From: Hyphomonadaceae bacterium
GTDB taxonomy: Bacteria > Pseudomonadota > Alphaproteobacteria > Caulobacterales > Aquidulcibacteraceae
Direction: 5' to 3'
Assembly: GCA_019636095.1 (NCBI GenBank)
Contig: JAHBYF010000008.1
Coordinates: 41,886 to 105,885 of the forward strand
DNA: 64,000 nt
Shown: positions 36,530-52,780 of the stretch, in pieces
Numbering within the stretch: the first letter of the stretch is position 1
Layout: the number at the start of each line of letters is the position of its first letter
The notes under the pieces: model-generated
Told to the model about the DNA's origin: nothing
Seen by the model: only the letters and a program-made list of their open reading frames with translations
The model's database searches: none
Translations under genes and position numbers: made by a program

Positions 36530-36600
36530 ATGGAGCGACCGTGGAGCAGGAACTAATAGTCGCTGAAGAGTTTGCGGCATCTCGGGTCCAGGCAGCCTAA
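36494..36600 (+). repeat. R repeat copy overlapping the 3' end of the META gene
   Basis: gccaaactagatggagcga aligns with gccactgactagaatggagcga, and tagtcgctgaagagtttgcggc aligns with ggtcgctgaaattcgcgc. It contains exact 9-mers atggagcga and gtcgctgaa. Confidence 0.5.
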
Positions 36601-36629
36601 GGCGTCTCAGACGAGTATCAGCTCCAGGA

Positions 36630-37532
36630 GTGAGCGTGAAAGATCCATACGACATCCTCGGAGTTTCGCGCTCAGCGTCGGCCGATGACATTCGTAAGGC
36701 CTACAGGAAGTCGGCCAAACAATCGCATCCAGACCTCAATCCGGGCGATAAGGATGCGGAGAGCCGTTTCAAAGAGGCCTCAGCCGCCTACGATCTATTA
36801 TCGGATTCTGAAAAGAGAAGGCGCTTTGACGCCGGAGAGATCGACGCGCAAGGCGCTGAACGACAGCGCGAACACTATTATCGCGACTTTGCGGGCGGCG
36901 CGAACGCCGATCCACGCTATTACACGGCGTCAGGGTTCGCGGATTTCGGCGATGCTGACGATGTCCTCGCAGAATTGTTTGCGCGCGCCGGACGGCGTCG
37001 ACGGGGCGGCGATCTGCATTTTCGCCTGCGTGTGAATTTCCTTGATGCTGTGAACGGAGGCAAGGAGCGTGTCACTCTGCCGGATGGGCGAACGGTGGAC
37101 ATTACAATCCCGCCCGGCGCCGAAGAAGGACAAGTTCTGCGGCTCAGCGGCCAAGGAGAGGCAGCTCCTCAACAAGGGGAGGCGGGCGATGCGCTGATTG
37201 AATTGTCAGTTGCAGCTCATCCGCTGTTCGAGCGCCGTGGCCATGACATCGTGCTCGAGTTGCCGATCACGCTGACGGAGGCGGTTGCTGGCGCAAAGGT
37301 CAAGACCCCGACTATTCACGGCGCGGTAATGCTCGCTGTGCCCAAGAACTCGAGTAGTGGCGCAGTGCTGCGTCTCAGGGGCAAAGGCGTTCGCCGGAGC
37401 GATGGCAGTTTCGGCGACCAACTCGTCAAGCTCAAACTGGTTTTGCCACCGACACCTGATGCCGAACTCGAAGCCTTTGCCAACAGCTGGAGCGGCAGGG
37501 CCGACTATCAACCGCGCAAGGATTGGCCATGA
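36630..37532 (+). CDS. cbpA: DnaJ-class co-chaperone, CbpA-like
   Basis: [36 protein letters not shown] (J domain with HPD) plus DnaJ C-terminal substrate-binding repeats. No Zn-finger region, as in CbpA. Confidence 0.85.
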
Positions 37533-37798
37533 CACTCGCAATCAGCGAATTTCTCGCTCGCGCCGAACTCGACGAAGCGACGCTTGAGGTCTGGGTCGCT
37601 GAAGGGTGGCTCATTCCTGATCAAGGTTCCGGCGCCTTTGGTGAAGGTGATCTCGCGCGCGCGCGTCTCATCAATGATTTGATGAAGGACCTTGGTGTAA
37701 ACGCCGAAGGCGTCGACATTATTCTTCACCTTGTTGATCAGATCCACAGCTTGCGCGGCGCACTGCATGCTGCGTCACGTGCGCATGAGGGTGAGTAG
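37523..37798 (+). CDS. cbpM: Chaperone modulator CbpM (MerR-like)
   Basis: 91 aa overlapping the cbpA stop. [26 protein letters not shown]...[30 protein letters not shown]. Confidence 0.7.
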
Positions 37799-37901
37799 AG
37801 CCCGTGTTGGCGGGCGCCGCTCGCAGGTAGTCGAGCCGCCGTGCGCGGGTTGGCCGAAGTAGAAGCGGCGGACGCTGCGCCTGGGCTAGGAGGAGACGTA
37901 A

Positions 37902-38438
37902 GTGACGCTGACATTGAGGAGCCTCGGCGGCGCTGGAACTGTCACTGGGTCAAAACACTTGGTCGAGACGAGCGGTACACGCGTCCTCGTGGATTGTGGT
38001 TTGTTTCAGGGCTTGAAACACCTGCGCGAGCGCAACTGGCCCCCGCTGGCCGTGACACCTCAATCAATAGATGGCGTTGTCCTCACGCACGCGCATCTCG
38101 ATCACAGCGGCTACCTTCCAAAATTGGTGCATGATGGGTTTCGAGGCGTCGCCCATTGTACTGCGGCAACCATGGCTCTGTGTGACGTCCTGCTGAAGGA
38201 TAGCGCGCACATCGGTGAGAATGACGCCGAATACGCCAATCGGAAGGGGTTCTCAAAACACACGCCCGCTTTGCCGCTCTATACCGTGCGAGACGCCGAG
38301 CGCGCCATAGGGCGCCTGAGACCACGGCCTTTTCATACCGAGTTCGAGGTTGGCGCTGATGTTGGTCTTACGTTGGCCCATTTGCGACGTTCGCCCCGCT
38401 CCTGCTGCTTGGTATCTGAGGAGCGAAAACTTGTTTAG
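37902..38438 (+). pseudogene. MBL-fold/beta-CASP hydrolase, 3'-truncated after residue 160
   Basis: LRSLGGAGTVTGSKHLVETSGTRVLVDCGLFQG...VVLTHAHLDHSGYLPKL is the N-terminal third of a ~450-aa beta-CASP protein. Homology ends at ...GLTLAH (codon CAT 38379-38381), where AGHILG is expected. It is followed by 18 unrelated codons. Confidence 0.7.
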
Positions 38439-38448
38439 CGGTCAGGTT

Positions 38449-38958
38449 TCACTGTCCCCTACAGTTGGCGTCTGCTGCGATGACCCCGCCGTCGGCTCTG
38501 CAGGTGGCCGGCGTGCTCCACCAATCGCGGCGACCGCGGGCGCAACAAACACGGTCGAGCTGCGTGTTCTCTTGGGCCGGTTGGCAGGATGCCATATTGG
38601 CGACTTGGCCCTGATTGCGCCGACATTGGCGCAAGGTCTCTATCGTATGCGCCCCGTTCGACAGGCAACACACGTTCTCACCGGTCCCTAGTGGCGCGGG
38701 ACGCGCCGGCGGGCTCTCGTAGCCAGGCGACGACACTCGGCGCCCCTCGCACACCGCTGCGGATACGATGCGCCCGCCTTCGCTGCGGCACGTGCCCGCG
38801 TTTAGCCACCAGTCGACGCCGTTCTTGCTGCAGCAAGCAACGCTGTTGGCGGAGCCGCCGTAGTCATCGTTTTGTGCACCCGCGGGTTCGGCGCGCAAGA
38901 TTGCGGCAGCGGCAATCGTCACGCAGATTACGGCAAGTCCGGCAATGGCGGCGCGCAT
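38449..38958 (-). CDS. Exported Cys-rich protein with three internal repeats
   Basis: Signal peptide. The three units are CCSKNGVDWWLNAGTCRSEGGRIVSAAVC, CCLSNGAHTIETLRQCRRNQGQVANMASC and CCARGRRDWWSTPATCRADGGVIAADANC. Confidence 0.6.
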   Translation of the reverse strand: MRAAIAGLAVICVTIAAAAILRAEPAGAQNDDYGGSANSVACCSKNGVDWWLNAGTCRSEGGRIVSAAVCEGRRVSSPGYESPPARPAPLGTGENVCCLSNGAHTIETLRQCRRNQGQVANMASCQPAQENTQLDRVCCARGRRDWWSTPATCRADGGVIAADANCRGQ

Positions 38959-39065
38959 CAGCTATGTCCTCGGCAAGTTCATGTCGAAACGGAAGCTGAG
39001 GGCGCGCCAGCTTAAAGCGCAACAAAATGAGCCTGATGGAGTGCTGATGAAAGCCTGATGGCTGA

Positions 39066-41003
39066 TCAGTGAGCCGAGATTTGCGCCGCGACGGCCCGGC
39101 AGTCGTATGGCCAAGAGGGATCTGCACAGAAATCCGGCCACAACCCGCGCTCGCGCCAGAACGCCAGCAGTCCGAGTTCAGATGCAAGCATCATAAAGCG
39201 GGGATCGCGGCGCATCGGCTCAAGCGGGGCCAGGAACAGAAAGAAGTGTTCTTGGAACGGACCGGGGTGTGCGCCAGCATATTCGAACGCCCTATCGAAT
39301 GCCCGATCCACATCTCCAAGCGCCGACAAAATGACAATGGATTGTTGGGCGGGGATGATTCCTTGGTTCTCTGCGTCAATCACAGCCCTGACCGCCAGCG
39401 CCGCTGGCTCCCGGCCCTGACGCGCGCGCATGTAATGGCGCCAAAGGTCTCGAGATTCGGGTGCGGAAGGGAACGCCACGTTGCTTAGCATGAAGTCGAA
39501 CGCGCGTTGGCGGCGTTCCGCATCACCGAAGAACATGGCCGAGTAGAAGTAGTTCAGACGTCCGCCTTGGTAGTCAGGCCAAAGACGCATCGATTCATCC
39601 GCAAGCGCGAGCGCTTCGTCTTTATCGCCCGCCGCCGCGAGTATTGCTATGGTGTGGGTCGCGAAACGTCGAGACAGCGGGTCGAGCCAACGCGAGCGAC
39701 GTGCAAACCGTGCTGCTTCGCTGGTCTGCCCAATCGCCAGCATGTGATACGCGAGTGCGAGATGCAGATCCCCGTTATCAGGGTCAAGGGCCATGGCGCG
39801 GTCGAGCAGATCTTTCTGCGCGCGCCAATCCGCTTCCAGCAATGAAAGCGCCATGTACGCTTGACCATTGCGGCGATCTAGTCGGAGCGCGAGTCGTGCA
39901 GCTTGCTCCGCCTCTGCACGCAATCTCGGCGCCTGTTCGGATGGTGCAAAGAACGCTTGATTTGCGTTGCCTAGCGCCAAGAGTGACCAAGCTTGGGAAA
40001 AATTTGGCTGAAGCTCCGTTGCGCGGAGCGCAAGCGTCCTGAGCGGCTCCCAATCTCCCGGATTGAAACGCTGCGCCTCGCAAGCCCGCAGGAATGCGCC
40101 CAAAGCTTCAGCGCTGCTCCTCGCGTCATGGCGCAAGCCTATGGCGGCGCACTTCAGGACGTCAGCAAGACGCGCCGCTGTTTGGTCTATGAGATTCGTT
40201 TCGTCAGGCGTGGCCCGATCAAAGACAAGTGACCAGAGAACAGCGCCGGACTGCGGATGCTGTATGCGAGCGCTAATTCGTGTGGTGTCGCCTTGGCGTT
40301 GTACGAGGCCGTCGACAATTAGAGCGACATGGTCTTCCGCCGCCCGGTGCTCGCCGTGATCGCCGCGGTAGAGGGCCGCGCGCGCCGGCGATAGGGCCAC
40401 CATTTCTTGACCGCCAAGGATGCCCGCCACTCTATCCGCGAGTGTGGCCGAAAACGGCGAGAGGGAGTTATCACCCGCAGTGTCGAACGGCAGGGCGGCG
40501 ATTAGAAAGCTTTGGTTGCGCGGTGTCAGCAGCGCCAGTCCCGCCGCTCCCGCGAGGATCAACGCCAACGCCGCGGCTAGAACTGCAAACGAGCGTTGCC
40601 GCCAAATCGGCCTTCCGCCGGCGCCGCTCGCTTCCCCCGCGACCTCTGGTGCAAGCAGCCGATAGCCGAGCTTCGGTACGGTCTCGACCTCGAAGGCGCG
40701 CGGCTCGCTTAGGCTGGCGATCTTTCGAACCTGAGCGACGGCGCGATGGATGGCGCTATCGCTGACCACGACTCCGGCCCAGCACGATGCTGTGAGATCG
40801 TCCCGGCTGACGATACGTCCACGCTGGCGCCACAAGGCGACCAGCACCTGCATAATCCGAGGCTCAATGTGCTTGGACTCGCCGCCAACTGCGACGTCAC
40901 AAGATGATGGCCGGATCGACAAGGACCCGATCGTGAAGTCAGGCTCGCGTGAAAGCTCGACGGGCGCCATTTCTGGCGGCTGACCAGCGGGCGACGCCGA
41001 CAT
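39066..41003 (-). CDS. Winged-helix (OmpR/CadC-type) DNA-binding - TM - TolB_N-like - TPR regulator
   Basis: IEPRIMQVLVALWRQRGRIVSRDDLTASCWAGVVVSDSAIHRAVAQVRKI (trans_reg_C). TM helix FAVLAALALILAGAAGLALL. FLIAALPFDTAGDN... (TolB_N-like). TPR-like C-terminus. Confidence 0.8.
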   Translation of the reverse strand: MSASPAGQPPEMAPVELSREPDFTIGSLSIRPSSCDVAVGGESKHIEPRIMQVLVALWRQRGRIVSRDDLTASCWAGVVVSDSAIHRAVAQVRKIASLSEPRAFEVETVPKLGYRLLAPEVAGEASGAGGRPIWRQRSFAVLAAALALILAGAAGLALLTPRNQSFLIAALPFDTAGDNSLSPFSATLADRVAGILGGQEMVALSPARAALYRGDHGEHRAAEDHVALIVDGLVQRQGDTTRISARIQHPQSGAVLWSLVFDRATPDETNLIDQTAARLADVLKCAAIGLRHDARSSAEALGAFLRACEAQRFNPGDWEPLRTLALRATELQPNFSQAWSLLALGNANQAFFAPSEQAPRLRAEAEQAARLALRLDRRNGQAYMALSLLEADWRAQKDLLDRAMALDPDNGDLHLALAYHMLAIGQTSEAARFARRSRWLDPLSRRFATHTIAILAAAGDKDEALALADESMRLWPDYQGGRLNYFYSAMFFGDAERRQRAFDFMLSNVAFPSAPESRDLWRHYMRARQGREPAALAVRAVIDAENQGIIPAQQSIVILSALGDVDRAFDRAFEYAGAHPGPFQEHFFLFLAPLEPMRRDPRFMMLASELGLLAFWRERGLWPDFCADPSWPYDCRAVAAQISAH

Positions 41004-41106
41004 CTTTTTTCCTTTTTGAACAACCCACTCAGCTTTCCATCAGCAATTCATCAGACCTCGATTGTTGTCAACTTGGCCCGTTTTCACGCGTGCTTGCTCG
41101 CCGACA

Positions 41107-42141
41107 ATGGCCAGTGGAGGTTTTTCGTTGAAATTTCTGTTGATTGCACTCGGGGCTGCGCTGTCTGCGTTCTCCGGACAAGCGTCTGCGCAGGATTATC
41201 AAAGCCCGACGATTGGCGGGCCGGGCGGCGAACCTTTCACCATGCGCTGCGCACAAGGTGATTTTCTCGTTGGCCTTCGCGCCCGTTCGGGAGATTGGGT
41301 CGATGCGATCGCGCCTCTGTGCGCACGCTGGGACGAGAGGCGGCAGAGGTTTTTGGCGCCGGGCATTGGTCCCGTGCGGGGCGGAAACGGCGGCGGACTC
41401 GTTGAAATTCGTTGCAATGAGATCTCGGCCCTGAAATCGTTGGTGGTTGAGCACGCGCCCAATCGCTACCGCAACGTGGCGCTGATCGTGCCGGCCTGTG
41501 CGTCTGGACGTGACCCTACGCGCACAACCGGTCGCCTCGGGGCGGCTCAGTTCGGCACCTCGATCGCGGATCGACGTGATCGCGAAGCTGAACCCGGCAT
41601 TGGGTCGACGACGAGCACCTTCTACGATGCGGACCGGATGCCGCACTGCAATGGAAGCGACCTTGCGGTCGGCATTTTTGGCGGGGCCGGGAACTATGTC
41701 GATCGGATTGGTCTGATCTGCGCTCCACCACCTCGCACTACCGCAGCGGCGACACGTCGTTTGCCGCCACCTTCTGATCTCGCGAACATGGGTCGCGGCG
41801 CAACACCCGCTCCATCTCGCCGGCGGGCCGAGGTCAGCGCCACCCCTGGCATTGCACCGGGAGAGCCAAACGGGCGGGATTGCCGCACCGGTTTTGTTTG
41901 GCGCGAAGCGCGCCCGGGCGATGTCGTATGCGTGACGCCAGAATCCCGCACGTTGGTTCGGCACGAGAATGCTTCCGCAACAGCACGCGTAAGTCCAGGC
42001 GGCGCCTACGGTCCACATACGTGCATCGCGGGGTTTGTGTGGCGCGAGGCCTTCGACGGAGACGTCGTCTGCGTCACGCCTGAACGACGCAGCCAAGTGC
42101 GCGAAGAAAACGCCACCGCCGTGACACGCGTTGCAGGATAG
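41107..42141 (+). CDS. Exported protein: jacalin-like lectin region plus two C-terminal CxxGFVWREA modules
   Basis: Signal peptide from ATG 41107. GGPGGEPF...LVGLRARSGDWVDAIAPLC and VGIFGGAGNYVDRIGLIC (jacalin-like GGxGG / G..vd.i pattern). Then CRTGFVWREARPGDVVCVTPESR...CIAGFVWREAFDGDVVCVTPERR. Confidence 0.6.
   Translation: MASGGFSLKFLLIALGAALSAFSGQASAQDYQSPTIGGPGGEPFTMRCAQGDFLVGLRARSGDWVDAIAPLCARWDERRQRFLAPGIGPVRGGNGGGLVEIRCNEISALKSLVVEHAPNRYRNVALIVPACASGRDPTRTTGRLGAAQFGTSIADRRDREAEPGIGSTTSTFYDADRMPHCNGSDLAVGIFGGAGNYVDRIGLICAPPPRTTAAATRRLPPPSDLANMGRGATPAPSRRRAEVSATPGIAPGEPNGRDCRTGFVWREARPGDVVCVTPESRTLVRHENASATARVSPGGAYGPHTCIAGFVWREAFDGDVVCVTPERRSQVREENATAVTRVAG
41881..42130 (+). repeat. 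Duplicated coding module, copy 1 (pairs with 43319-43568)
   Basis: The first ~68 nt differ at only about 5 positions from 43319-43386; the rest is about 70-75% identical by eye. Confidence 0.7.
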
Positions 42142-42298
42142 CCTGCTGCTCCAAATCCATCGACGAGACCGTTCCATGCAGTCAAAGAAGTGTTTCTCGG
42201 ACTCCGCCTGCAATCGTGAGGCGAGGTTTGCAAACGCCCAAACGCGCGCAGCGTTCACACATTGGGGATTGAGGTTAGCGGCAGACATTGCTCCGCGA

Positions 42299-43576
42299 AT
42301 GCGGATCGTGACTATCGCGCTTGCGCTGTTGTCCTGCATCTCAATTGCGCCACGCGCGGAGGCGCGGCCTGGTACACCGAGGAATCTGATCGTGAGTGAC
42401 TGCAGCGGCGATTCCTCAATCGGGAGGGGGCCGCGCTTCTCTGGGCCGCCAATCCTCTGTCTCGACTTTGAGAACACGGCGCCCGAGAGCGTCCGCTTCG
42501 AATTCATGGCATTTGCGAACGGCGCCGTTATCCCCGTCACAACCTTCGACGCGTTTTGTCGCAATCGCAATGCGGGCGCGTGCACGGCAAGCGGCGCATT
42601 CGTTGCCTGGGGATATTCGCATTATACAGAACGAGACTCGTCAAACCCTGTCTGGGAGCGCGAGGCGATCTATCTCGTCGGCGCTGACTTCGACACGCAA
42701 TATTGCTTCATGGTACGCACGCGAGATGAGAGCGACACCGTTTCGTTGTTGTGGTCCAATCGCGCGTGTCTAGTCACGCGCGGACGACCGCTGCCGCCAA
42801 CGGAGCCTTCGATTAGCGTTCGAACCTCGCAGCGCGGGGACCGCGTCATGGTCTCATGGGGAGGCGGGGGCCGCGAGGTGGGAAATTATGAACTTGAGGC
42901 CCGAACATCGCGTCCCATAGAGTTTGCATTGATTCCAGAAAATGTGCGCCGGGCGAACGAGTTTCATCGATTGGGCGCCGATTCATTCACGCTTGACGTG
43001 CCGTGGGCGGTCGCGCTCGACATGCATGATGAGGCGTATCTTTATCGCGTTTGCGCGGTTAACGTCGCCGGCAGAAGTTGCTCGGCGTGGGTGTCCAGTC
43101 TCGGCGACGCGCCTCCCCGCAGCGTCACGCAGGCTGCTGTGCGTGAGGTCCAGTCAAATGTTGCGAACGCCGTACCGCCTCCGCTCAGTGCGGAATCACA
43201 ATCGCATCCGCTTGGCGCACGAAGGGAAGCGGACGGTCCTTCTCGGCCATCGCGCGCTAGCGCCGAAGCGACTGCTGATGTGACGGTGTCTTCGCGGGCT
43301 GGGGATCAATCACCACGATGCCGCACTGGCTTTGTTTGGCGCGAAGCGCGCCCGGACGATGTCGTATGTGTGACGCCCGAATCCCGTGCGCAGGTGCGGC
43401 AGGAGAACGCGACCGCTGGGTCTCGCGTTAGCCCCGGCGGGCCCTATGGGCCGAACACATGCGTGTCAGGATTTGTTTGGCGTGAGGCGTTCGACGGGGA
43501 TGTTGTTTGCGTTACGCCGGCGCGGCGAAACAACGTACGCGACGAAAACCGAACCGCCGCATCTCGGACGAACTAA
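42299..43576 (+). CDS. Exported protein: Ig/FN3-like region plus two C-terminal CxxGFVWREA modules
   Basis: Signal peptide MRIVTIALALLSCISIAPRAEA from ATG 42299. C-terminal CRTGFVWREARPDDVVCVTPESR...CVSGFVWREAFDGDVVCVTPARR is paralogous to the preceding gene. Confidence 0.6.
   Translation: MRIVTIALALLSCISIAPRAEARPGTPRNLIVSDCSGDSSIGRGPRFSGPPILCLDFENTAPESVRFEFMAFANGAVIPVTTFDAFCRNRNAGACTASGAFVAWGYSHYTERDSSNPVWEREAIYLVGADFDTQYCFMVRTRDESDTVSLLWSNRACLVTRGRPLPPTEPSISVRTSQRGDRVMVSWGGGGREVGNYELEARTSRPIEFALIPENVRRANEFHRLGADSFTLDVPWAVALDMHDEAYLYRVCAVNVAGRSCSAWVSSLGDAPPRSVTQAAVREVQSNVANAVPPPLSAESQSHPLGARREADGPSRPSRASAEATADVTVSSRAGDQSPRCRTGFVWREARPDDVVCVTPESRAQVRQENATAGSRVSPGGPYGPNTCVSGFVWREAFDGDVVCVTPARRNNVRDENRTAASRTN
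43319..43568 (+). repeat. Duplicated coding module, copy 2
   Basis: See 41881-42130. Confidence 0.7.
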
Positions 43577-43697
43577 GCGAGCGAAGCTGAGATAGTTAGG
43601 GGCTTACAGGAGTCCAATTTCGGGCGATCGTGAGCGGTTCACGCGGGGAGGAGGCGAGAGGCTGGATTTGATCGAGTGAGCCATTGACCTTGGCGGC

Positions 43698-44171
43698 TCA
43701 AAGAAGTGCGGGACGCGCCAGCATCAGCCAAACGATCCCAAGCACGCTGAAGAAGGCGGGGAAGCCGCACAAGAACCATGCCCGGAACAATTGGTAGTAG
43801 CGTGCGGGCAGCACTTCATTTCTTGCGACCGCTGATCGGGCGAGGTCGCGCATACGATGTTGCATCCACAAGACCGGCAACCAAAACGCTCCAGTGAGCA
43901 CATAGAGCCCCAGAGATAGCGCGATCCAACCTTCGGTGAGCGACCAGCCGGTCGCCTGAGCAAGTAGGGCGCCCGTAACCGGCTGGATCACGACGGCGCT
44001 CGCCGTGAACAGCCAGTCGGCAATCACCACCACGCCTGCTGTGTGCGCAATGATGCGCGGGTCCTTTGAGCGATGCGCCATCACCATGAAGAAGGCGATG
44101 CCGGCGCCGGTGCCAAGCAACACTGCGGCGCCAATGACGTGAAGCCAGCGAAGGAAAAGCGCGTACTCCAT
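43698..44171 (-). CDS. DUF2269-family integral membrane protein
   Basis: From ATG 44171, which overlaps the upstream stop (ATGA). MEYALFLRWLHVIGAAVLLGTGAGIAFFMVMAH; 4 TM helices. Confidence 0.65.
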   Translation of the reverse strand: MEYALFLRWLHVIGAAVLLGTGAGIAFFMVMAHRSKDPRIIAHTAGVVVIADWLFTASAVVIQPVTGALLAQATGWSLTEGWIALSLGLYVLTGAFWLPVLWMQHRMRDLARSAVARNEVLPARYYQLFRAWFLCGFPAFFSVLGIVWLMLARPALL

Positions 44172-45466
44172 CAGCGCTCCTCGATCAGCGCGGCTACCGC
44201 GAACGCCAGTGCAATGGCTGGGAGTATTTTCACGTACGGGCCCAATGGATCGGACCAAAGCGTAGGATTGGTCCAGGTTCCAAGTGCGATGTAGCCCAAC
44301 GAGACGATGATGGCGCTTGAGGCCGCCCGCCGAGCTGTCTTGCGAAAGCAGAGACCGACCCCGATGGCGATATCTAGAAGTGCGCCACCGATCACGAGCA
44401 TCATCGCTTGGTCCTCAAGTACGGTGCCACGCAGAACTGCCGCGGCTGCAGTCGCTTGGACCAGCGCAATCGCGCCGGAGGCCATCCAAAAGGTCGCCAA
44501 TGACAGGATGAGGAGCGGAAAGGTGAGTTGCGCTCGGGCGAATACACGTTCCTGCAAAGTCGCCGGCAGCGCGTTTAGCGACTCCGCTAGCGTCTTCAAC
44601 GGACGCCCGAGCGCCTGCTGGCCTTGATCTGGATCACCTAACACGTTTCCCGCGAGCACCTTGAGCGCGGTCGTTCGCAATGGGGATCGCCATCCGAGCC
44701 AGCCCGCTACATCGGCGCAAGATCCCAGCAGCGCGCCGAGCAATAGCGGTGTCGAAAAGATGAAATGAGCCGGGGCGAAGCCCAGCCAACTCCGAAAGGC
44801 CGAGATAGTTTCTGCCAAGGTGTGCGTCCTACGCTCCACCAAATCCACCTCACGGCGTACAAGACGGTCGGTTGTGATAGCAATGGCCACCGCATCGGCG
44901 ACATCTGAGACGGCGACGCTCTGAAGCCGCGCGTCGGGAAGCATCAGTGGTTGAACTGCAGGAAAGGCGGCGAGCATGCGCAATAAGGCGGTGCCGCCAT
45001 AAGCGTCAGCGCTGATCACGAGGCCAGGTTTCAGGATCGTCCACTCAAGTGAGCTCGCGCGCAGCGCGGCGTCCGCTTTGCCCTTCGTGCGCATGAACGC
45101 GGTGCTTGCGTCTGGCGTGGCGCCCGGCGCGGAAATCTGTACGTAGCGGCGCACGCCGGCATTTACGCATGCATTGACGAGCGCCACGATGGCTTCGTGT
45201 TGGGATGCCTCCAACCGGTCGATTGCGCCATCTTGCAGAGCGCCCGATGCGTTTACGACCGCGTCCACGCCACGTAGGTAAGGTGTCCAACGCTCAGGCT
45301 TAGTTAGGGTGGCGAGATCAGCGCCAACCCAATCGATGTTTGGGGCAAGCCGCTTGCCCTTAGCGTAAGAGCGGCCAAAGCCGACCACGGTCAGTCCGTC
45401 GGCCCGAAGCCGCCGTACAACGTCGGACCCGATCAGGCCATATGCGCCGAGGACTAGTACACGCAT
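44171..45466 (-). CDS. NAD(P)-binding (SDR/NmrA-like) domain fused to a DoxX-like membrane domain
   Basis: From ATG 45466. MRVLVLGAYGLIGSDVVRRL (Rossmann GxxGxxG). Hydrophobic C-terminal half with several TM helices. The track start at 45562 runs into the R copy. Confidence 0.7.
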   Translation of the reverse strand: MRVLVLGAYGLIGSDVVRRLRADGLTVVGFGRSYAKGKRLAPNIDWVGADLATLTKPERWTPYLRGVDAVVNASGALQDGAIDRLEASQHEAIVALVNACVNAGVRRYVQISAPGATPDASTAFMRTKGKADAALRASSLEWTILKPGLVISADAYGGTALLRMLAAFPAVQPLMLPDARLQSVAVSDVADAVAIAITTDRLVRREVDLVERRTHTLAETISAFRSWLGFAPAHFIFSTPLLLGALLGSCADVAGWLGWRSPLRTTALKVLAGNVLGDPDQGQQALGRPLKTLAESLNALPATLQERVFARAQLTFPLLILSLATFWMASGAIALVQATAAAAVLRGTVLEDQAMMLVIGGALLDIAIGVGLCFRKTARRAASSAIIVSLGYIALGTWTNPTLWSDPLGPYVKILPAIALAFAVAALIEER

Positions 45467-45519
45467 CGTCCCAGCTAAGGGGCTTTGGCCATCGAAGCAA
45501 AGCGACGCAATGACCGACT

Positions 45520-45618
45520 TCGGCGACAACACGCCATTGCTGCACGGCGCTAAGCCACTCACCGCAATCGATAGAGTAGGTCAGTCGCCCAAATCGTCGC
45601 GACGTGCTACGATGGCCC
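45520..45618 (+). repeat. R repeat copy (subfamily B)
   Basis: tcggcgacaacacgccattgctgcacggcgctaagccactcaccgcaatcgatagagtaggtcagtcgcccaaatcgtcgcgacgtgctacgatggccc. Confidence 0.85.
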
Positions 45619-45682
45619 TGAAAAGCCTTACATCGTCTCCGCACGACTTGTGTATCCATGCACTCTGCCGCTCACTGCATCC

Positions 45683-46198
45683 ATGAAATTTGTCCGCTCA
45701 CTCATTCTGCTTTGCTTAGCCCTGGTAGGTGGTCTGACGCTGAGCGCGCGTGCCGATCAGAACCTGACGGAACGCGTTCGCCCTCCCGCGCTGACGATGC
45801 CTGATGACTGCACATGGGAAACTGCGCGCGCTCTCTCGGTTGAGGAAATCTCACGAGACTACCTTGCTTTGTATGGCCAATGTGTGCGGACGCGCGGCAT
45901 ATCAGATGGAAATTCAATTGGACCGGACGAAGCCACGTTTCGCCGAGTGGATTGGGCTGAACTCGGCGTGATGTTTCAGAACGAGCCGTTGCCACCGGGA
46001 AGGTTCACAGACGCCGAGTTCCTCGGCGTGGTTGGTGCGTGCGAGTACGTTTGTCCGCCGATTGAAGAGCAGATCGTCCGTCATTCCGATGGCTCTGCGA
46101 CCATAAGGATATGCATGGCCACAGGCGTTTGCCATTGGTTTGGAGAATATCCGTATCTGTTGGCTAGGGATTTTCGCACCTTTACTCCGCACCCGTGA
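45683..46198 (+). CDS. Exported hypothetical protein (171 aa)
   Basis: Signal peptide MKFVRSLILLCLALVGGLTLSARA from ATG 45683; several Cys residues. Confidence 0.6.
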   Translation: MKFVRSLILLCLALVGGLTLSARADQNLTERVRPPALTMPDDCTWETARALSVEEISRDYLALYGQCVRTRGISDGNSIGPDEATFRRVDWAELGVMFQNEPLPPGRFTDAEFLGVVGACEYVCPPIEEQIVRHSDGSATIRICMATGVCHWFGEYPYLLARDFRTFTPHP

Positions 46199-46223
46199 AA
46201 CGCCAGCGCCTCTGCGTCCATAA

Positions 46224-46321
46224 ACGACGGCAACACGACGTTGCTGCATGCGCTAAGCGATTGACCGCAACCGATAGAGTAGGTCGCTCACTCGCGGAGT
46301 GCGCCTATCCGGCAACGGCCC
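46224..46321 (+). repeat. R repeat copy (subfamily B)
   Basis: acgacggcaacacgacgttgctgcatgcgctaagcgattgaccgcaaccgatagagtaggtcgc.... About 85% identical to 45520-45618 over the first ~75 nt by hand count. Ends in ...ccggcaacggccc. Confidence 0.85.
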
Positions 46322-46365
46322 GCGATATGATGCTTCTGAGTCCGAACTACTCATTGAGAACGGGC

Positions 46366-47082
46366 TCAGTTCGCGCTTGAGAGGCGTGTGTATTCTTCTT
46401 CTATCCGCTCGGCGTAACCGCCTGCTGCGGCGCCGGGGCCGTTGTAAGCGCGTGCGAAGCTTGCCCAGTCCTTGCGCTGAAGGTCGTCGACTAAGCCGCG
46501 GTTTCGAATCCATCGTAGCCAAGCCGCGAGTTGATGTTGCGGCGAGCGCGCTAGATCAGAAACGAAAGCTTGTACGGTGGGGTAGCCAGCAGCCTCGTAT
46601 TGAAAGCCGACCATTTGAAACGCGCCCCAGCTTGTCGAAGCGAGGGCTTCATCGGGCGCAAGAGCGTATGCCTCCGCGAGTTGGCTCCATCTATCGTCTT
46701 GCCTGCTTGGGTATGGCCGCTCGCCGTAGCGCGAGTAGGAGATCGTCGGATGGGAGGCGTTGAACCTTCCACCCGTTCTGCGGGCAAAGATGTGTGGTTC
46801 AAACAAGATGAGCGGGCGGCCATTTTCGTCGTAGCCCGTCCCTCTGGCGCTTTCCGCCATCGCAACCGCTTGGAGCGCCGCCGGCTCTATTTGCGACGCT
46901 GCTGCGGGTTCAACGAAGTCTTCGTTCGTCAGTGGCGTAACCGATGCCGCTCTTAGGCTTGCGAGGAAATCCGGCGATTGACCTGCTGCGGTAACGGGAG
47001 TTTGCGCCCATGTTGGCAAGACGAGCAATACGCCAAGGGTCGTTCCGAGCGCCACGAGCGATCGTCGAGTGAAACGGGGCAA
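46366..47082 (-). CDS. Exported N-acetylmuramidase-like protein (DUF3380 family)
   Basis: I start it at TTG 47082 (AGGAG 5 nt upstream), giving the signal peptide MPRFTRRSLVALGTTLGVLLVLPTWAQ. ILFEPHIFARRTGG...TSWGAFQMVGFQYEAAGY...ASFARAYNGPG matches the DUF3380 endolysin-like muramidase pattern. Confidence 0.7.
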   Translation of the reverse strand: MPRFTRRSLVALGTTLGVLLVLPTWAQTPVTAAGQSPDFLASLRAASVTPLTNEDFVEPAAASQIEPAALQAVAMAESARGTGYDENGRPLILFEPHIFARRTGGRFNASHPTISYSRYGERPYPSRQDDRWSQLAEAYALAPDEALASTSWGAFQMVGFQYEAAGYPTVQAFVSDLARSPQHQLAAWLRWIRNRGLVDDLQRKDWASFARAYNGPGAAAGGYAERIEEEYTRLSSAN

Positions 47083-47297
47083 AGTGGTCTCCTGCGGAGT
47101 TTTCGCTGCACTTGCGACCTTAGCTGATGGCCTTGAGACTTCAAAGCGTCGCGAGCGACACCGGAGGTTGGTTGAGCGGTTGTCGAGGGCGCGGCGCAAA
47201 GGCCTTTCCCGATGGACAGAAAGCGACTGGCGAGAATATCTTGGCGTCGGTTTCGCAAGAGGCGAACCTGCATGTTCGTGAGCGGGCCGAGGTCGAC

Positions 47298-50200
47298 ATG
47301 GTGAAAAGTGGACGTCGCGCGCGTTCTTTGCGCTGGCACCTGCTCGCGGGAGCACTCTTTTGTTCGCCGGCGTTGGCGTTGGTCGCGCATGCCGAGACCG
47401 GGTCAAGCACGCGGGTGGACGCCGCCGCCGAAGTGGCGACCGTCGTATTTCAGGCGTCGGCTACCCAGTTGGCGGCGCAACGATTGGCGGACGACAATCT
47501 TCGCCGTGCAAACCTAGAAATCGAGCGCTTACGCGCGCAGGGCGAGGCGGCGCGCATTGAATTGGCGTCTGCCGAAGAGAGGTTTGTCGCCGAATTATCG
47601 GTGCGAGATGAAGCGTACCGTCAAGAAATTGCTGTCTATCGCGGCGCCGTCGAAGACATCGCGTCGACACCAGAGGGTGTTCGAGCGCTCGCGCGCTACA
47701 ACGCCGGAGACGTTGATGGCGCGCTGTCGATTGTAGATCGTTTGGCAGACGCTCGAGCTCGAGCGCGACGTGCGGGCGCCGACCTTGCTGAGGCTGTCGA
47801 CCGGCGAAACATAGCGCGTTTGGCGCTGGATGCGTTGCGCAGGGGGCAGGGCGAGACGCGCAACGTGATTGCGCGCTACGAAGACGTCGTGCGTCTCGAT
47901 CCCAGCAACGCTGATGACTGGCTTGAATTGGCGCGGCTTGATCGCGATGCTCATAGACTGGCCGAGGCCTCTGGCGCCGTAGAGAGCGGTCTGCGCGTGG
48001 CGGAATCGGATCGCGCACGCGGACTGTTGGCCATCGAGCGCGGTCTAATTGCGGGCGACCGCGGTGACACCGCGGGGAGTCGAGCGGCTTTCAGTGATGC
48101 GAGAACAGCTTTGGCTGCGCGCGCCGAGCGCGAACGTACCGACGTTGTTGCGCAGCGAGATTACGTGGAGTCGCTTTATCGTTCCGCAGATGTCGCCTCC
48201 GATGAGCTAGAAGCGGGGACGCTGCGGGCGGAGGCGCTAGAACGCGCGCGCGCATTGGTCGCCGAAAATCCAGGGGATATCGCCGCCCGGCTTGCGCTCC
48301 TGTCAGTTTTTGATTCGCTCGCGGGCGATGCTGCGGCGCGGGAAGACTACCGCACTGCTCTTGCCACGCTGGGTGAGCAGAGCGATGCGCTAGAACGCCT
48401 TTCCGAAGCGGGATTGGACGCAGACGGCGGCATCGCGTTGCGCCGAGCACGTGCTCGGATGGCAATCGCGATCGCTGGAGTTTTCTCTAGGCTAAGGCTT
48501 AGTGACGACGAACTCGACGCTCGACTCTCTGCGATGCAGATATATAGCGCGATATCGCGTGCAGATCCAACAAGTGCGCTGGCGCGCGAAGACCTTGCCA
48601 ATGCGCAGATCGACTATGGTGCGGCTGCGCTCGGAAACAACATCACGTTTCAGAGCGACGACGGTGGCGATGCCATAGACGGGGGGGATCTTGTCGAAGG
48701 CGGTCTGCAAACTTTGCGCGAATTGGCGCTCGCCGAACCCGATAACCACCTTGTTCAGATTCAACTAGCGTCGCGCCTATTGAACGCTGCGCGTGTGATG
48801 TTTGCAGAAGAACGTTACCGCGCGCGTGGCGATGAACTTCTTAACGAAGCGGTGACCCTGGGGGGAAGATTGGACGCGGGGGGCGCCGGCGTTGAGGAGA
48901 TTGGGCCCTTGCTGACGTTTGGTCTGCTGGCTCGAGCAGCCCCATTCGAGCGCGTGCAGGACTGGCCGAACGCGATTGCCGCGTATGACGAGGCAATCAG
49001 GCAACAACAAAGGGTTCTTGCCGCTCGGAACCGCGACGACACAGAAGACTTCAATTTTCTCGAAGTAGCCCTGCTAGGCAAGGCTGAGGCGCAACACGCT
49101 TCCGGAGACGCGCGGGCAAGCCGCGCGACCTTTGCAGCGGCAGTTATGGCGGTTCGCGAAGCACAACGTCACGCCAGAAGCAATCCGGCCGAGCAGGCGC
49201 TCGTCGCGAACATGTACAAGGGCTTGGGCCTACACCTCTTAAGGGTGGGAGAGGCGGAAAACGCCCAAGACATGTTCGAGCGTGGCTTCGCCATCCAGGC
49301 GCGATTGGCGTCGGCCGACCGCGAGGTTGGCGTGTTCACCGACGATTTCCGCGACGATCTTTTGGATGTGGGCGAACGCCTCGGGGCAGTTGCCGGCGAC
49401 GATGTGCGAGCCCGTTATGTCGAACAAGCGGTAGATCTCTACCGCGAAGCTGTTCGACAGCAACCTGATGAGGTGGGGCAGTGGGAGCGTCTTGAGGAGA
49501 CGCTTGAGCGGGGAGCGCGTATCTACGCAAACGGCGCGGATGAGGCGCATGCTCTGCGGCTCTACAGGGAACGCGCTGCTGCATTGGAGCGCGTCAACGC
49601 GCTTGGACGATCGCGCGCGGTGTCTTTGGTGTTTGCCTATTTCGACGTGGCTGACAGCGAAGCTGACGAGTCGGCTGCATCGCACGCGTTAGACCACGCT
49701 GTCGATTTGGCGCGGTCTGTGTTTCAAAATGATCCGTCACAACAAGTATTGTTGGTGACAGCGCTTGGACATCGCGCGGACTGGAAGGAGAGGCACGGCG
49801 CCTTCGAAGTTGCACTTGCGGATGTGGATGATGGCGTAACCAACGCGCGAGAGGCTGCCACGGCTCATCGGGACGTACGCTTTGCGGCCTCCAATCTCAT
49901 CCGACTTGCCTTGATTGGCGCCAAAGCGGCGGAGGGCCTCGCGGATTCCACACGTGCGTGGGGTTATTTGGAGCAAGCGACGGCGGCTTCACGACAATTT
50001 TCCGCCGAGTTTGCTCAAGATCAGGAAATGCAGCGACTCGCTGCACGCGCGCTTGCGATGGAAGCGGATCGCGCTGAGGCGCAGGGACGTAGAGCAGCTT
50101 TGATGTCGCTTGAAGGCGACATTCTAGCGGTCGATCGCCGATTGGCGGCATTGCAACCCGGCGATAGCGACGCCCAACTTCAAATGGCGCAATCCGCAGC

Positions 50201-51629
50201 TCGTTTTGCCTCATGCCAAGGACAAGGCTGCGCTCCGATGGAGATGAGGCTGCAAGCGCTCGCGGACGCGAGAGCAGCGTTAGACTCGGTGCGTGAAAAT
50301 GAAGACGTCCGCACAGATGTGATCGGACGTGTCGTTGGGGCGTTCTTGTTGGAGGCGCAAATTCACCACGGTCTTGGTGACGACCAAGCGGCGAGAGCGG
50401 CTTACCAGCAAGCACAGGTGTGGTTGACGACTGCGGTTGCGGCGCACACGGATGATGCTGCAGTTCAAGTGGAATGCGTACGAGGCGTTGATTACATCGC
50501 GCAGTCAATGAGCGCAAATCTGAGCCAAGCCGAAGGCTTCGCGGTATACACGACGTTGATCCATTCGCGGCAAAACGCGGTTCGGAGCGCGCCTGGAAAT
50601 GCAGCTGGAGCCGTCGGTTTGCTGAACGCCTCCGAGGTCTGGGCCGGTGCGCTTGCGCGCGTCAATCGCGAGGGTGATGCGATTGACGCGCTCCGCGATG
50701 GACTCGCTCAGGCCATGCCAGTTGTTGTTGTTAATCCTGACAACGAGATGCTTGTTGGTCACGTCGTGATAGCGCAGACGCAGTTGGCAAACCTATTGAA
50801 GGAGACTGGAGCGGTCGAGGAGGCCGAACGTGCGGCGCGTAGCGCGCTTGACGCGGCGCGCGCCTTTTCTGGGCGTGCCCCGGAAGAAGCGCGTCACACG
50901 GCCATGGTGGCGCGTGCGTCCTACTGGGTATCGAACACCGGTCTTGCGGTCGTCTCTCATGACGATGGTGTTGCCGGTTTGATTCAACTGCGTCAGTTGC
51001 ATCAGGCACTAGTCCCCGGCAGCAATGTCAGCGATGTGAACGCGATGTTGATGTTTGAGCTGCAGAATCGTGCCCCAACGCGGCGCGCGGCCCACGACTA
51101 TCGCGGCGCAGTCGATGACCTCTCCCTGTTGAAGGAGATATATGTAGCAACGAATGAGTCGGGCGATCGTATTGAAAGCGCTTATGCCCGGGCAGTGATC
51201 GATACTGAGCTTGCGCTTAATCTGAATGACCTTGAGGATTACGCCCACGGTGAGGCTTCGGCGGCCAGTGCGGTCGAGGGACTCACACATGTCGTAGAGA
51301 CCGTCGGCTCACGCGACAACCAACGGGCCCTGGCGCGCGCGTTGATCGCGCATGCGGATGCACTCATACTATTGGGTCGCAGCCAAGATGCTGGCCCAGA
51401 GCTTGATCGCGCCTTGAGCTTATTTCTGGCATTGGCAGCGCCACCCGACGGCGAGGCGGAAGATCGCACTGGGCGCGGGTTGGCTTATTTCCGGTTCGCT
51501 GCGATTGGTCGCGCGCCTGCGGCGTGGGCGCCGCCTCCGCCGGAGGTACATCGATATCTGAGCGCCACCGACCTACGCATGTTGGCTTTGGCCGCCGCGG
51601 CGAATGTGGCGGCGCCCGCGCAACACTGA
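47298..51629 (+). CDS. Giant exported all-alpha repeat protein (TPR/Sel1-like by eye), 1444 aa
   Basis: ATG 47298. Signal peptide MVKSGRRARSLRWHLLAGALFCSPALALVAHAE. Ala/Leu/Arg/Glu/Asp-rich helical repeats throughout. The track start at 47127 overlaps the divergent gene. Confidence 0.7.
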   Translation: MVKSGRRARSLRWHLLAGALFCSPALALVAHAETGSSTRVDAAAEVATVVFQASATQLAAQRLADDNLRRANLEIERLRAQGEAARIELASAEERFVAELSVRDEAYRQEIAVYRGAVEDIASTPEGVRALARYNAGDVDGALSIVDRLADARARARRAGADLAEAVDRRNIARLALDALRRGQGETRNVIARYEDVVRLDPSNADDWLELARLDRDAHRLAEASGAVESGLRVAESDRARGLLAIERGLIAGDRGDTAGSRAAFSDARTALAARAERERTDVVAQRDYVESLYRSADVASDELEAGTLRAEALERARALVAENPGDIAARLALLSVFDSLAGDAAAREDYRTALATLGEQSDALERLSEAGLDADGGIALRRARARMAIAIAGVFSRLRLSDDELDARLSAMQIYSAISRADPTSALAREDLANAQIDYGAAALGNNITFQSDDGGDAIDGGDLVEGGLQTLRELALAEPDNHLVQIQLASRLLNAARVMFAEERYRARGDELLNEAVTLGGRLDAGGAGVEEIGPLLTFGLLARAAPFERVQDWPNAIAAYDEAIRQQQRVLAARNRDDTEDFNFLEVALLGKAEAQHASGDARASRATFAAAVMAVREAQRHARSNPAEQALVANMYKGLGLHLLRVGEAENAQDMFERGFAIQARLASADREVGVFTDDFRDDLLDVGERLGAVAGDDVRARYVEQAVDLYREAVRQQPDEVGQWERLEETLERGARIYANGADEAHALRLYRERAAALERVNALGRSRAVSLVFAYFDVADSEADESAASHALDHAVDLARSVFQNDPSQQVLLVTALGHRADWKERHGAFEVALADVDDGVTNAREAATAHRDVRFAASNLIRLALIGAKAAEGLADSTRAWGYLEQATAASRQFSAEFAQDQEMQRLAARALAMEADRAEAQGRRAALMSLEGDILAVDRRLAALQPGDSDAQLQMAQSAARFASCQGQGCAPMEMRLQALADARAALDSVRENEDVRTDVIGRVVGAFLLEAQIHHGLGDDQAARAAYQQAQVWLTTAVAAHTDDAAVQVECVRGVDYIAQSMSANLSQAEGFAVYTTLIHSRQNAVRSAPGNAAGAVGLLNASEVWAGALARVNREGDAIDALRDGLAQAMPVVVVNPDNEMLVGHVVIAQTQLANLLKETGAVEEAERAARSALDAARAFSGRAPEEARHTAMVARASYWVSNTGLAVVSHDDGVAGLIQLRQLHQALVPGSNVSDVNAMLMFELQNRAPTRRAAHDYRGAVDDLSLLKEIYVATNESGDRIESAYARAVIDTELALNLNDLEDYAHGEASAASAVEGLTHVVETVGSRDNQRALARALIAHADALILLGRSQDAGPELDRALSLFLALAAPPDGEAEDRTGRGLAYFRFAAIGRAPAAWAPPPPEVHRYLSATDLRMLALAAAANVAAPAQH

Positions 51630-51649
51630 AAGACTGGAGGGCGCGGACC

Positions 51650-52687
51650 ATGGCTGAGATATTCATATCTTATAAGCGCGAAGACGAGACGCGCGTCGGC
51701 AAGCTCGTCACTGCTTTACAGCAGGCTGGTCAGTCGCTCTGGTGGGATCGTGGCTTGCCTGGCTCGGAAAGCTGGCGCGAAAACATCCAGCGCGAGCTTG
51801 ATGGGGCCAAAGTTGTTATTGTTTGCTGGACGCGCGCGAGCGTAGGTTCAGCTGGTGATTTTGTGCGCGATGAAGCTGGACGCGCAAAAGAGCGCGGCAT
51901 TCTCATCCCTGTTCTTCTAGAGCCGGTTCGCCCGCCACTGGGGTTTGGCGAATTGCAGGCGATTGACCTCAGCCATTGGCGGGGCTCGCTGCGCGATCCG
52001 TTTTTTGGCGATCTATTGGCTGTTATCGAGTCCAAACGTACCGGCGCTCCAGCGCCCAGCCCGAAGGGGCCGATGCGTCGCCTCATGCGTCGTCTCACAA
52101 TTGGTTCTATCGCCAGCGCGCTCGCGGCAGGGATATTCGGCTTTTCAATGAACGTACTGCGCATACAGGACCAGGCGTGCACCCTGAGCATAGGGCAGCC
52201 TGGTCTTTCTGACGTTTGTGGCGCTCTCGGTTTGGGCGGACGCCCATCGCGAGAAGCGCGCCTCGCCTGGGAGGCTCTGCCGCCAAACGATTGCCAAGCG
52301 CTGCGTGGTTTCCGCGAGCGCTTTGAAACAAGTCCACTGCGTGCACTCGCTGACAGCCGCTTAGCCAGCCGACGCATCGTTTCTGCCGAGCAATGGATTG
52401 AGAGCGATCGCCAAGATCCGGTGCTATTCGAACCGGCGAGCGGCGCGCCGCTACCTAGTCAGTCCGCAGCGCAAGCCGCGGCGATAACGCGTGCCCAACT
52501 TAGCGCTGAGCGTCTGTGCCGGGCGTTCGGCGCGAGCAGTATTTTTCGCTATCGAGGCGCGCGCCCAGTTGCGGAAACTTGGCGATGTGAGCGGAGCGAG
52601 GCGGGATATAGTTGCGGATTCGAGGGCCGAGCCGACTGCGATCTTCAAGAAAGGCGCGTGAGCGAGTCCGAAGTCTGCGGAAACTAG
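51650..52687 (+). CDS. TIR-domain protein with one TM helix and a Cys-rich extracytoplasmic C-terminal domain
   Basis: ATG 51650 with GGAGG upstream, 20 nt after the giant gene stop. MAEIFISYKREDETRVGKLVTALQQAGQSLWWDRGLPGSESW...VVIVCWTRASVGSAGDFVRDEAGRA (TIR_2-like). TM helix LTIGSIASALAAGIFGFSMNVL. The C-terminal ~170 aa contain 8 Cys. Confidence 0.8.
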   Translation: MAEIFISYKREDETRVGKLVTALQQAGQSLWWDRGLPGSESWRENIQRELDGAKVVIVCWTRASVGSAGDFVRDEAGRAKERGILIPVLLEPVRPPLGFGELQAIDLSHWRGSLRDPFFGDLLAVIESKRTGAPAPSPKGPMRRLMRRLTIGSIASALAAGIFGFSMNVLRIQDQACTLSIGQPGLSDVCGALGLGGRPSREARLAWEALPPNDCQALRGFRERFETSPLRALADSRLASRRIVSAEQWIESDRQDPVLFEPASGAPLPSQSAAQAAAITRAQLSAERLCRAFGASSIFRYRGARPVAETWRCERSEAGYSCGFEGRADCDLQERRVSESEVCGN

Positions 52688-52689
52688 AT

Positions 52690-52780
52690 GTTGTCTCTCT
52701 CGCTCGTCAGCGACTCGCTTCCAGGACCGCCCGGCGCCTGGACGACTAGGCCGTCGCGTGCGCACCCGGCAACGCCCCCC
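52690..52780 (+). repeat. Degenerate R repeat copy (tentative)
   Basis: gacgactaggccgtcgc aligns with gagcgactaggccggtcg of the 19942 copy. cccggcaacgcccc aligns with tccggcaacggccc of the 46224 copy. Confidence 0.4.

Follow-up and report, generated by a model that had tools for sequence, protein, structure and literature searches.

A widespread gene pair encoding an exported TPR-like protein and a membrane-anchored TIR protein, predicted to form a split transmembrane receptor

A 64,000-nt stretch of DNA from a metagenome-assembled genome (MAG) of a Hyphomonadaceae bacterium (the window; all coordinates are positions within it) carries a gene for a membrane-anchored TIR protein (GenBank: MBX3431297.1) immediately downstream of a gene for a large exported protein (GenBank: MBX3431296.1), referred to here as the partner. 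Comparison of related loci shows that the conserved unit consists of these two genes, which are usually translationally coupled and are inherited together. The pair is probably a variant of TIR-based systems not previously described, namely a split transmembrane receptor resembling Toll-like receptors (TLRs), whose function is predicted from sequence and structural models: a conserved, self-contained unit in which a repeat-protein sensor in the periplasm would be coupled to a TIR domain in the cytoplasm. A first-pass annotation of the window had proposed a three-gene module that also included an exported muramidase. All three open reading frames (ORFs) were present as it described them, that is, an exported muramidase, a large protein with a signal peptide and a TIR protein with one transmembrane (TM) helix and eight cysteines; the large protein kept its signal peptide and position, and its length was 1443 aa rather than the 1444 aa given. 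The finding is nevertheless broader than that annotation could show, because it concerns a widespread gene pair and not a local trio.

The locus set comprised 86 loci from genomes and metagenomes with flanks of ±10 kb, 56 of which carried a full gene for a TIR domain, a TM helix and the eight-cysteine domain (TIR-TM-Cys8). These 56 loci span at least seven phyla. A homolog of the partner N-terminal domain directly adjoins the TIR gene on the same strand in 42 of them (35 upstream and 7 downstream), and the stop and start codons of the two genes overlap by 4 nt in 24 loci; the gap in the window is 20 nt, exactly as first annotated. At 9 of the 14 loci without a partner homolog, the contig extends less than 1.3 kb upstream, and four further ones (L030, L043, L046 and L047) belong to a divergent subfamily with an exported coiled-coil/TPR gene in the equivalent position. 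Additionally, pairwise divergence of the Cys8 ectodomain was correlated with that of the partner N-domain (Mantel r 0.54, reached in 0 of 2000 permutations), consistent with joint inheritance and perhaps with physical contact. A tblastn search of the ±10 kb around the TIR gene detected no muramidase homolog at any of the 86 loci, all from other lineages, and no third gene recurred among the 120 nearest ORFs of approximately 50 loci, apart from extra TPR proteins. Because of the pairing in 42 of 56 loci, the missing muramidase and the lack of any other recurrent neighbor, we take the conserved unit to be two genes. Co-location in other genomes, which the first-pass annotation had itself set as the measure of its module, was thus found for the TIR and large-protein genes and not for the triad. 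Its proposal that the large exported protein is a partner of the TIR protein proved genuine, the pairing being conserved across loci, and, as it had noted, the unit comes without ThsA, SIR2, STING or cyclase partners.

Homologs with approximately 50% identity occur in Acidobacteriota, Nitrospira, Gemmatimonadota, Verrucomicrobiota, Rhodothermales and Alpha-, Beta- and Gammaproteobacteria. The TIR-TM-Cys8 family is frequently found in bacteria of soil and water, for example, Acidobacteriota, Nitrospira and nitrifiers, and Nitrosospira briensis Nsp8 (L013) is a cultured carrier of the pair. The features of the pair and its surroundings in the window are listed in Table 1.

Table 1 Positions of the gene pair, its domains and the surrounding features in the window
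Feature	Position	Strand	Size or residues	Basis or remark
Partner ORF (large protein)	47298-51629	+	1443 aa
Partner signal peptide, MVKSGRRARSLRWHLLAGALFCSPALALVAHA followed by E	47298..47393	+	aa 1-32	Hydrophobic segment aa 14-32, AxA motif (cleavage between AHA and E)
Partner conserved N-domain	47412..48077	+	aa ~39-260	Identity to TIR-adjacent genes; defines the partner family
Partner long degenerate TPR-like helical region	48078..51629	+	aa 261-1443 (stop codon included)	Profile-profile homology
TIR protein gene	51650-52687	+	345 aa	PF13676 match
TIR domain	51650..52054	+	aa 1-135	PF13676, AF2, Foldseek
Single TM helix, LTIGSIASALAAGIFGFSMNVL	52094..52159	+	aa 149-170	Kyte-Doolittle scan
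Periplasmic 8-Cys ectodomain (predicted)	52160..52687	+	aa 171-345 (stop codon included)	Conserved Cys, AF2
Exported N-acetylmuramidase, PF11860 (formerly DUF3380)	46366..47082	-		Pfam and signal sequence
Divergent intergenic region, muramidase/operon	47083..47297		215 nt	ORF coordinates
Cassette (muramidase, partner and TIR genes)	46282..52737		6.46 kb	Recurs as a block in L088
Strain-specific region	15367..52732		37.4 kb	Absent from L092
tRNA-Met(CAT)	15287-15363	not given		Strain-specific region begins right after
R repeat, left copy abutting the cassette left end	46216..46285			Repeat families D2/D3

The TIR domain matched PF13676 (TIR_2) over residues 4-110 with an E-value of 1.7e-20 (74.1 bits against a cut-off of 28), and hundreds of relatives aligned with the TIR protein at 50-63% identity across 100% of its length. 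In the AlphaFold2 (AF2) model of the full-length protein (pLDDT 85.7; approximately 90 in the TIR region), residues 4-131 form a flavodoxin-like fold of alternating strands and helices. A Foldseek search with the TIR domain gave 43 PDB matches at E<=1e-3, and the 50 best listed were all TIR domains (TM-score up to 0.79 on the target); the best matches were the NAD+-hydrolyzing (NADase) TIR domains of SPARTA TIR-APAZ, AbTir and SARM1, and PdTIR and MyD88 were also found. The glutamate of the FVRDEAG motif (Glu75, encoded at 51872-51874), already called conserved in the first annotation, was invariant in 33 homologs. The AF2 model places it in helix 67-81, which follows strand 55-60; the sequence alignment to AbTir spans residues 3-56 only, short of Glu75.

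The 15 residues preceding the TM helix contain five Lys/Arg, and the 15 following it contain one Lys/Arg and one Asp/Glu (net charge 0). The protein has no N-terminal signal peptide. Both the missing signal peptide and the positive charges on the TIR side indicate that the TIR domain would be cytoplasmic and the Cys-rich domain periplasmic. The TIR-TM-Cys8 protein is thus predicted to be a bitopic inner-membrane protein with TIR inside and Cys8 outside, in line with the topology first proposed.

Eight cysteines (residues 177, 190, 215, 290, 313, 322, 330 and 343) follow the TM helix, and all eight were invariant in 33-40 sequences. Modeled alone, the ectodomain reached a pLDDT of 91.9 in AF2 and consists of five short helices, followed by a beta-sheet with a long helix and a long beta-hairpin. 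A search for structural relatives of this model gave no significant PDB match (best E 0.18, TM-score <=0.2) and none in BFVD. Similarly, no model in Pfam, NCBIfam or PADLOC covers the ectodomain or the partner N-domain, so that two protein domains would be new. Profile searches of this kind, which the first annotation had recommended, returned nothing for the partner and weak, TIR-restricted PADLOC and NCBIfam matches for the TIR protein.

The ectodomain family contains at least 342 clusters at 50% identity, the majority of them TIR-TM-Cys8. Other members carry a different segment ahead of the TM helix, namely CHAT, a caspase-like protease (P0228 and P0266), EAD1 (P0143) or just a short tail without TIR (P0201). 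TIR, CHAT and EAD are typical interchangeable effector or adaptor heads of bacterial conflict systems (PMC8195603). In one protein of 1768 aa (P0204), the ectodomain is located C-terminal to M23 peptidase and OmpA domains, which is part of the reason for placing it in the periplasm. The contigs with CHAT-Cys8 and EAD1-Cys8 proteins were too short to show the presence or absence of partners. The metagenomic protein P0143 (locus L091) also contains a segment resembling the partner N-domain (hhalign 94%, E 1e-7) between EAD1 and the TM helix that precedes Cys8; the partner-like coiled coil would thus lie on the presumed cytoplasmic side in this single sequence from a 4-kb contig.

For the partner, the ATG at 47298 was preferred to the GenBank start at 47127, which would give 1500 aa, because homologs align from there and a signal peptide ending in AHA before E results. 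Partner homologs start with comparable signal peptides. The N-domain (approximately 220 aa) shares 37-53% identity with the gene adjoining the TIR gene in the 42 paired loci; its pattern in the window (ASATQ...EIAVYRGAVEDIASTPEG...ARYNAGD...VIARYEDV..LDP..DW.EL) corresponds to ASATQ...EIAVFR.AV.DIASTPEG..ALARYNAGD...VIARYEEV.RLDP..DW.EL in relatives. Those relatives (333-1300 aa) consist of a signal peptide, the N-domain and 2-20 regular TPR-like units of 48 aa, and they carry Pfam TPR_12, TPR_10 and TPR_2.

The partner in the window is the longest observed, and its repeats are degenerate. No Pfam TPR model scored above its gathering threshold (best 15-17 bits vs cut-offs of 24-27), a hidden Markov model (HMM) of the 48-aa unit built from relatives found no match, and self-BLAST detected essentially no internal repeats (one marginal match at E 0.005). 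In addition, residues 261-1443 gave no tblastn match in other loci at 1e-5. With the unit HMM and self-BLAST essentially empty, regular repeats in the 1443-aa protein were rejected. Alignment with the partner family by hhalign, however, gave a probability of 100% (E 3e-44) over residues 29-766. The description as a helical-repeat protein in the first annotation therefore holds by homology to a TPR-array family and not by the protein's own repeats, and the TPR-like nature of this partner comes only from profile-profile homology to a bona fide TPR-array family.

The muramidase matched PF11860 over model positions 1-174 of 175 (E 1.5e-48; 165.9 bits vs a cut-off of 22.3), and its identity to phage endolysins is 35-38%. 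The likely start is the TTG at 47082, with GGAG in front, and the N-terminus (MPRFTRRSLVALGTTLGVLLVLPTWAQ) resembles a Tat/Sec signal; the profile match and this N-terminus bear out the first description of an exported DUF3380-type muramidase on the minus strand, diverging from the two-gene operon. One promoter-like site was found in the divergent intergenic region (47213-47242), and it was not above chance. The muramidase stands beside the pair solely in its own lineage (assemblies 98-99% identical). As a system component it was rejected on the tblastn result for the related loci. Judging from these comparisons, it is a lineage-specific passenger of the local cassette, outside the conserved module.

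Assembly L088 contains exactly the cassette span at 98.6% identity with unrelated flanks, indicating that the three genes travel as a local block, because the same span stands there in a different context. The right end of the cassette is the end of a strain-specific region. In L092 (GCA_041398265.1), a 99%-identical MAG contig, 44 unrelated bases separate window position 15366 from 52733; the window sequence between these positions is therefore strain-specific, and the pair is absent from this MAG. The last 6.4 kb of the region correspond to the cassette, and the region ends 45 nt past the TIR stop codon. The strain-specific DNA resembles a tRNA-linked island in having its start at the 3' end of a tRNA gene. 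The ten ORFs between 15.5 and 26.6 kb contained no integrase domain, with the remaining region partly scanned, and the two ends of the 37-kb region share no significant att-type direct repeat.

In a 99.8%-identical strain (L087/L089), an inversion splits the partner gene into ORFs of 733 and 827 aa, and the TIR gene is intact (99% identical). At both inversion junctions, the 9-bp CAACAACAA (window 49002-49010) occurs in inverted orientation, and one of them abuts a tyrosine-integrase gene. It is possible that the inversion is artefactual and arose in the assembly of short-read contigs. A TIR-WD40 gene was also observed on the inversion contig.

Integrases, toxin-antitoxin pairs, AbiE and CBASS genes were found within 10 kb in L001, L003, L005/6 and L087. 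Specifically, a PSK_trans_fac/PIN toxin-antitoxin pair is located between the partner and TIR genes in L005 (9310-9989), and the same pair stands just upstream of the TIR gene, with the partner downstream, in L006 (387-1066). These loci also have a second partner-like TPR gene (332 aa) that overlaps the TIR gene at the latter's 3' end. Several MAGs contain two TIR-TM-Cys8 copies, including CAVPBP010000006.1 (L055 and L062), JANNQT01 (L023 and L053) and DATJRL01 (L036 and L045); where two copies share one contig, the genes are approximately 20 kb apart.

A sister family (L064-L086; for example, L068:10001-11896) combines a TIR domain, a TM helix and a periplasmic TPR part in one chain of approximately 630 aa. 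Its TIR domain is of the same subtype (50-58% identity), and its periplasmic part consists of a domain of approximately 130 aa (IAVLPFxNLSGD...) and TPR repeats. Its members are frequent in Sphingomicrobium, Phenylobacterium and other Alphaproteobacteria. The periplasmic sensor is homologous to that of a 645-aa winged-helix (Trans_reg_C, ToxR/CadC-like)-TM-TPR protein encoded in the window at 39066-41003 on the minus strand (27% identity over 464 aa, E 1e-20). Because the sister family shares its sensor with this regulator, related sensors can carry either a TIR or an ordinary DNA-binding output.

We regard it as probable, if only just, that the pair is a mobile transmembrane receptor with periplasmic sensing, in which oligomerization would produce a cytoplasmic TIR NADase output, and that it serves in conflict or defence. 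The N-domain of the exported partner would dock on the Cys-rich ectodomain, and the variable TPR array would bind, or be displaced by, a periplasmic ligand, most likely a component or a consequence of an invader crossing the envelope. Clustering of the receptor would then bring the cytoplasmic TIR domains together. As in SARM1, AbTir and SPARTA, the oligomerized domains could build a composite NADase site; the resulting depletion of NAD+ would halt growth in a manner resembling abortive infection. The lack of a separate conserved effector gene makes the TIR domain the likely effector. The conflict or defence role is favored because of the CHAT and EAD1 swaps, the variable sensor array, the patchy spread across phyla, the paralogs and the presence or absence of the pair at the strain level; a defence role is plausible, and an antiphage one putative.

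Several points weigh against this reading. Glu75 is a putative equivalent of the catalytic glutamate, assigned because it is conserved and follows beta-strand C, at the alpha-C helix, and not from a residue-level structural alignment. Docking of the partner on the ectodomain is deduced only from gene adjacency and correlated divergence, and NADase activity, topology and phenotype are predicted from sequence or models. The partner in the window is atypical of its family, and the PADLOC and NCBIfam matches of the TIR protein are weak and confined to TIR. Moreover, among the 120 ORFs mentioned above (the four nearest at each locus), approximately two were known defence genes (AbiEii and Cas1), which gives no clear defence-island signal, in a test that is weak because ORFs were called naively in GC-rich DNA. 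Carriage by phages was seen at 1 locus among 2.9 million IMG/VR viral contigs. The TIR gene of L087/L089 is intact despite the split partner gene, and the sister family suggests that ordinary signaling outputs can replace TIR on such sensors.

Some of these observations could also be explained by a non-immune envelope or environmental receptor, in which a physiological periplasmic cue (cell-wall state, a metabolite or redox) is sensed and the TIR domain is a regulated output that makes a nucleotide signal or tunes NAD+, taking the role that winged-helix or cyclase outputs have on similar sensors. The sensor shared with the Trans_reg_C-TM-TPR protein, the presence of a cyclase-TPR protein in the same strain-specific region and the mainly ordinary nearest neighbors, not enriched in defence, are consistent with such a receptor, as are the single fusion of the ectodomain to the peptidoglycan-related M23 and OmpA domains and the place of the pair beside a muramidase in this lineage. 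A core pathway, however, would hardly be expected to show a patchy cross-phylum spread at approximately 50% identity, paralogs and strain-level presence or absence; CHAT and EAD1 as alternative heads are typical of death or conflict systems, and no downstream reader of a TIR-made signal is conserved. We therefore hold a physiological receptor to be unlikely, though it is the main rival reading.

Far less credit is due to the three-gene envelope-sensing system first envisaged, with a functional muramidase that, for example, generates or reports a peptidoglycan signal relayed to the TIR NADase. The 6.46-kb block that is intact elsewhere at 98.6% identity, the divergent arrangement of the muramidase and the operon 215 nt apart and the single occurrence of Cys8 together with M23 and OmpA would suit it, whereas the absence of the muramidase from all 86 loci of other lineages largely refutes it. 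No third gene recurs among the neighbors, and the co-occurrence is confined to near-identical strains, so these observations are not independent; we consider this system highly improbable. A guard or addiction pair was also considered, in which the partner would keep the receptor monomeric and silent, and loss, titration or failed export of the partner would free TIR toxicity and so stabilize mobile DNA. Tight translational coupling with the partner mostly first, the location of the pair on variable or mobile DNA and the PIN/PSK toxin-antitoxin pair at L005 and L006 would agree with this idea. It is nonetheless improbable, given that the partner is split and TIR intact in L087/L089, where pure antitoxin loss would be lethal unless the fragments work, and that membrane-anchored ectodomain proteins without TIR exist (P0201).

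The receptor reading that we favor shares with TLRs and Toll a repeat sensor outside, a single-pass helix and a TIR domain inside that is thought to act by induced proximity, and the sister family holds this whole arrangement in one chain. Unlike in TLRs, in which the solenoid is made of LRRs, the solenoid here is TPR-like and a separate secreted protein; the TIR domain is N-terminal and the ectodomain C-terminal, the reverse of TLRs, and the TIR protein's own ectodomain is a small 8-Cys domain. The strict TLR architecture (an N-terminal LRR ectodomain, a TM helix and a TIR domain in one polypeptide) is thus not that of the pair. The output here would probably be NAD+ hydrolysis, whereas TLRs recruit adaptors, and common descent of the whole receptor is not implied. 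A further-reaching version, in which the pair is a widespread bacterial TLR-like pattern-recognition receptor whose rapidly diversifying secreted TPR solenoid surveys the periplasm and, by way of a disulfide-rich ectodomain and one TM helix, activates the TIR NADase (CHAT or EAD in variants), detecting invaders before they reach the cytoplasm, is possible but in our view rather doubtful.

The TIR domain itself is closest in structure to those of SPARTA TIR-APAZ/short pAgo, AbTir and SARM1, with which it would share an effector role; its invariant Glu75 stands at the position expected of the catalytic residue. Whereas those proteins reside in the cytoplasm and respond to nucleic acids or NMN, the present TIR is membrane-anchored with a predicted periplasmic input module. 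Pairs or fusions of TIR and TPR have been shown experimentally to be antiphage in E. coli TIR-II (PMC11350192) and B. cereus BcTir/BcTpr (bioRxiv 10.1101/2023.05.26.542521), and NADase activity in BcTir/Tpr was located in the N-terminus of the TPR protein (bioRxiv 10.1101/2023.05.26.542521). By their descriptions, which mention neither a signal peptide on the TPR protein nor a periplasmic ectodomain on the TIR protein, both systems are set apart from the present pair.

With Thoeris (ThsB and a ThsA-type effector; types I-XI) the pair shares a TIR_2-type domain, with weak matches to ThsB_TIR and ThcB4-type models. The pair differs from Thoeris in architecture and in having no conserved signal-reading effector gene, and a survey of Thoeris types lists no such architecture. 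Membership in Thoeris was rejected, as the NCBIfam ThcB4 model scored 14.2 bits against a cut-off of 220 and the sole conserved neighbor is an exported TPR protein. Membership in CBASS or Pycsar was also rejected, since PADLOC returned nothing for the partner and the muramidase and weak SAVED_TIR-type matches in the TIR region, and no cyclase recurred among the neighbors. Zorya ZorAB, the anti-sigma factor DdvA (which controls CBASS/CRISPR) and the periplasmic HXS system provide precedents for immunity that senses or acts at the envelope or in the periplasm; they are not homologous to the pair and have other components and outputs.

To our knowledge, almost all characterized bacterial TIR systems sense cytoplasmic events. 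In the open-access papers and preprints searched, no bacterial membrane TIR protein with an exported or periplasmic TPR partner was described, and the pair was likewise missing from the model libraries, as the first annotation had supposed in calling the gene content undescribed. If the pair does act in defence, it would place TIR immunity at the envelope and represent a bacterial counterpart to the outside-sensor/inside-TIR logic of TLRs. With two genes, the unit is small enough for direct testing.

Both TIR genes of the window, all five copies of the R repeat and the cyclase-TPR gene lie in the strain-specific region, together with truncated fragments of MFS and TonB-receptor genes and several regulators. 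The R repeats (approximately 70-110 nt; 28931-29040, 29511-29584, 30826-30899, 45549-45622 and the copy in Table 1) are intergenic and share 61-76% identity with a reference copy. Rfam detected only the tRNA in the whole window, so that the R repeat corresponds to no known RNA. The first annotation had placed the module between two R copies; the left one was recovered as a member of this family. The right one (approximately 52690-52780) was rejected, because its local alignment to the five copies was no better than that of shuffled sequences and MAFFT did not align it.

The second membrane-anchored TIR gene (31654-32685, minus strand) encodes 343 aa with a TIR_2 match (E 3.5e-20), and its TIR domain is 37% identical to that of the pair, so that the genome has at least two TIR-TM-ectodomain proteins. 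This second protein carries its Glu in a WVLDEAD motif and has a Pro-rich linker, one TM helix and a different C-terminal domain of approximately 150 aa with two Cys; weak matches to Thoeris-type TIR models were found. The gene is preceded, 89 nt away and on the same strand, by an Amidoligase_2 gene (32774-34129). The cyclase-TPR gene, encoding a guanylate cyclase with TPR, is located at 18204-19922 on the plus strand. Finally, a direct repeat of 241 nt with 76% identity (41881-42121 and 43319-43559) falls in the adjacent ORFs 41062-42141 and 42131-43576, which resemble tandem paralogs, one of them with a faint Jacalin-like match.

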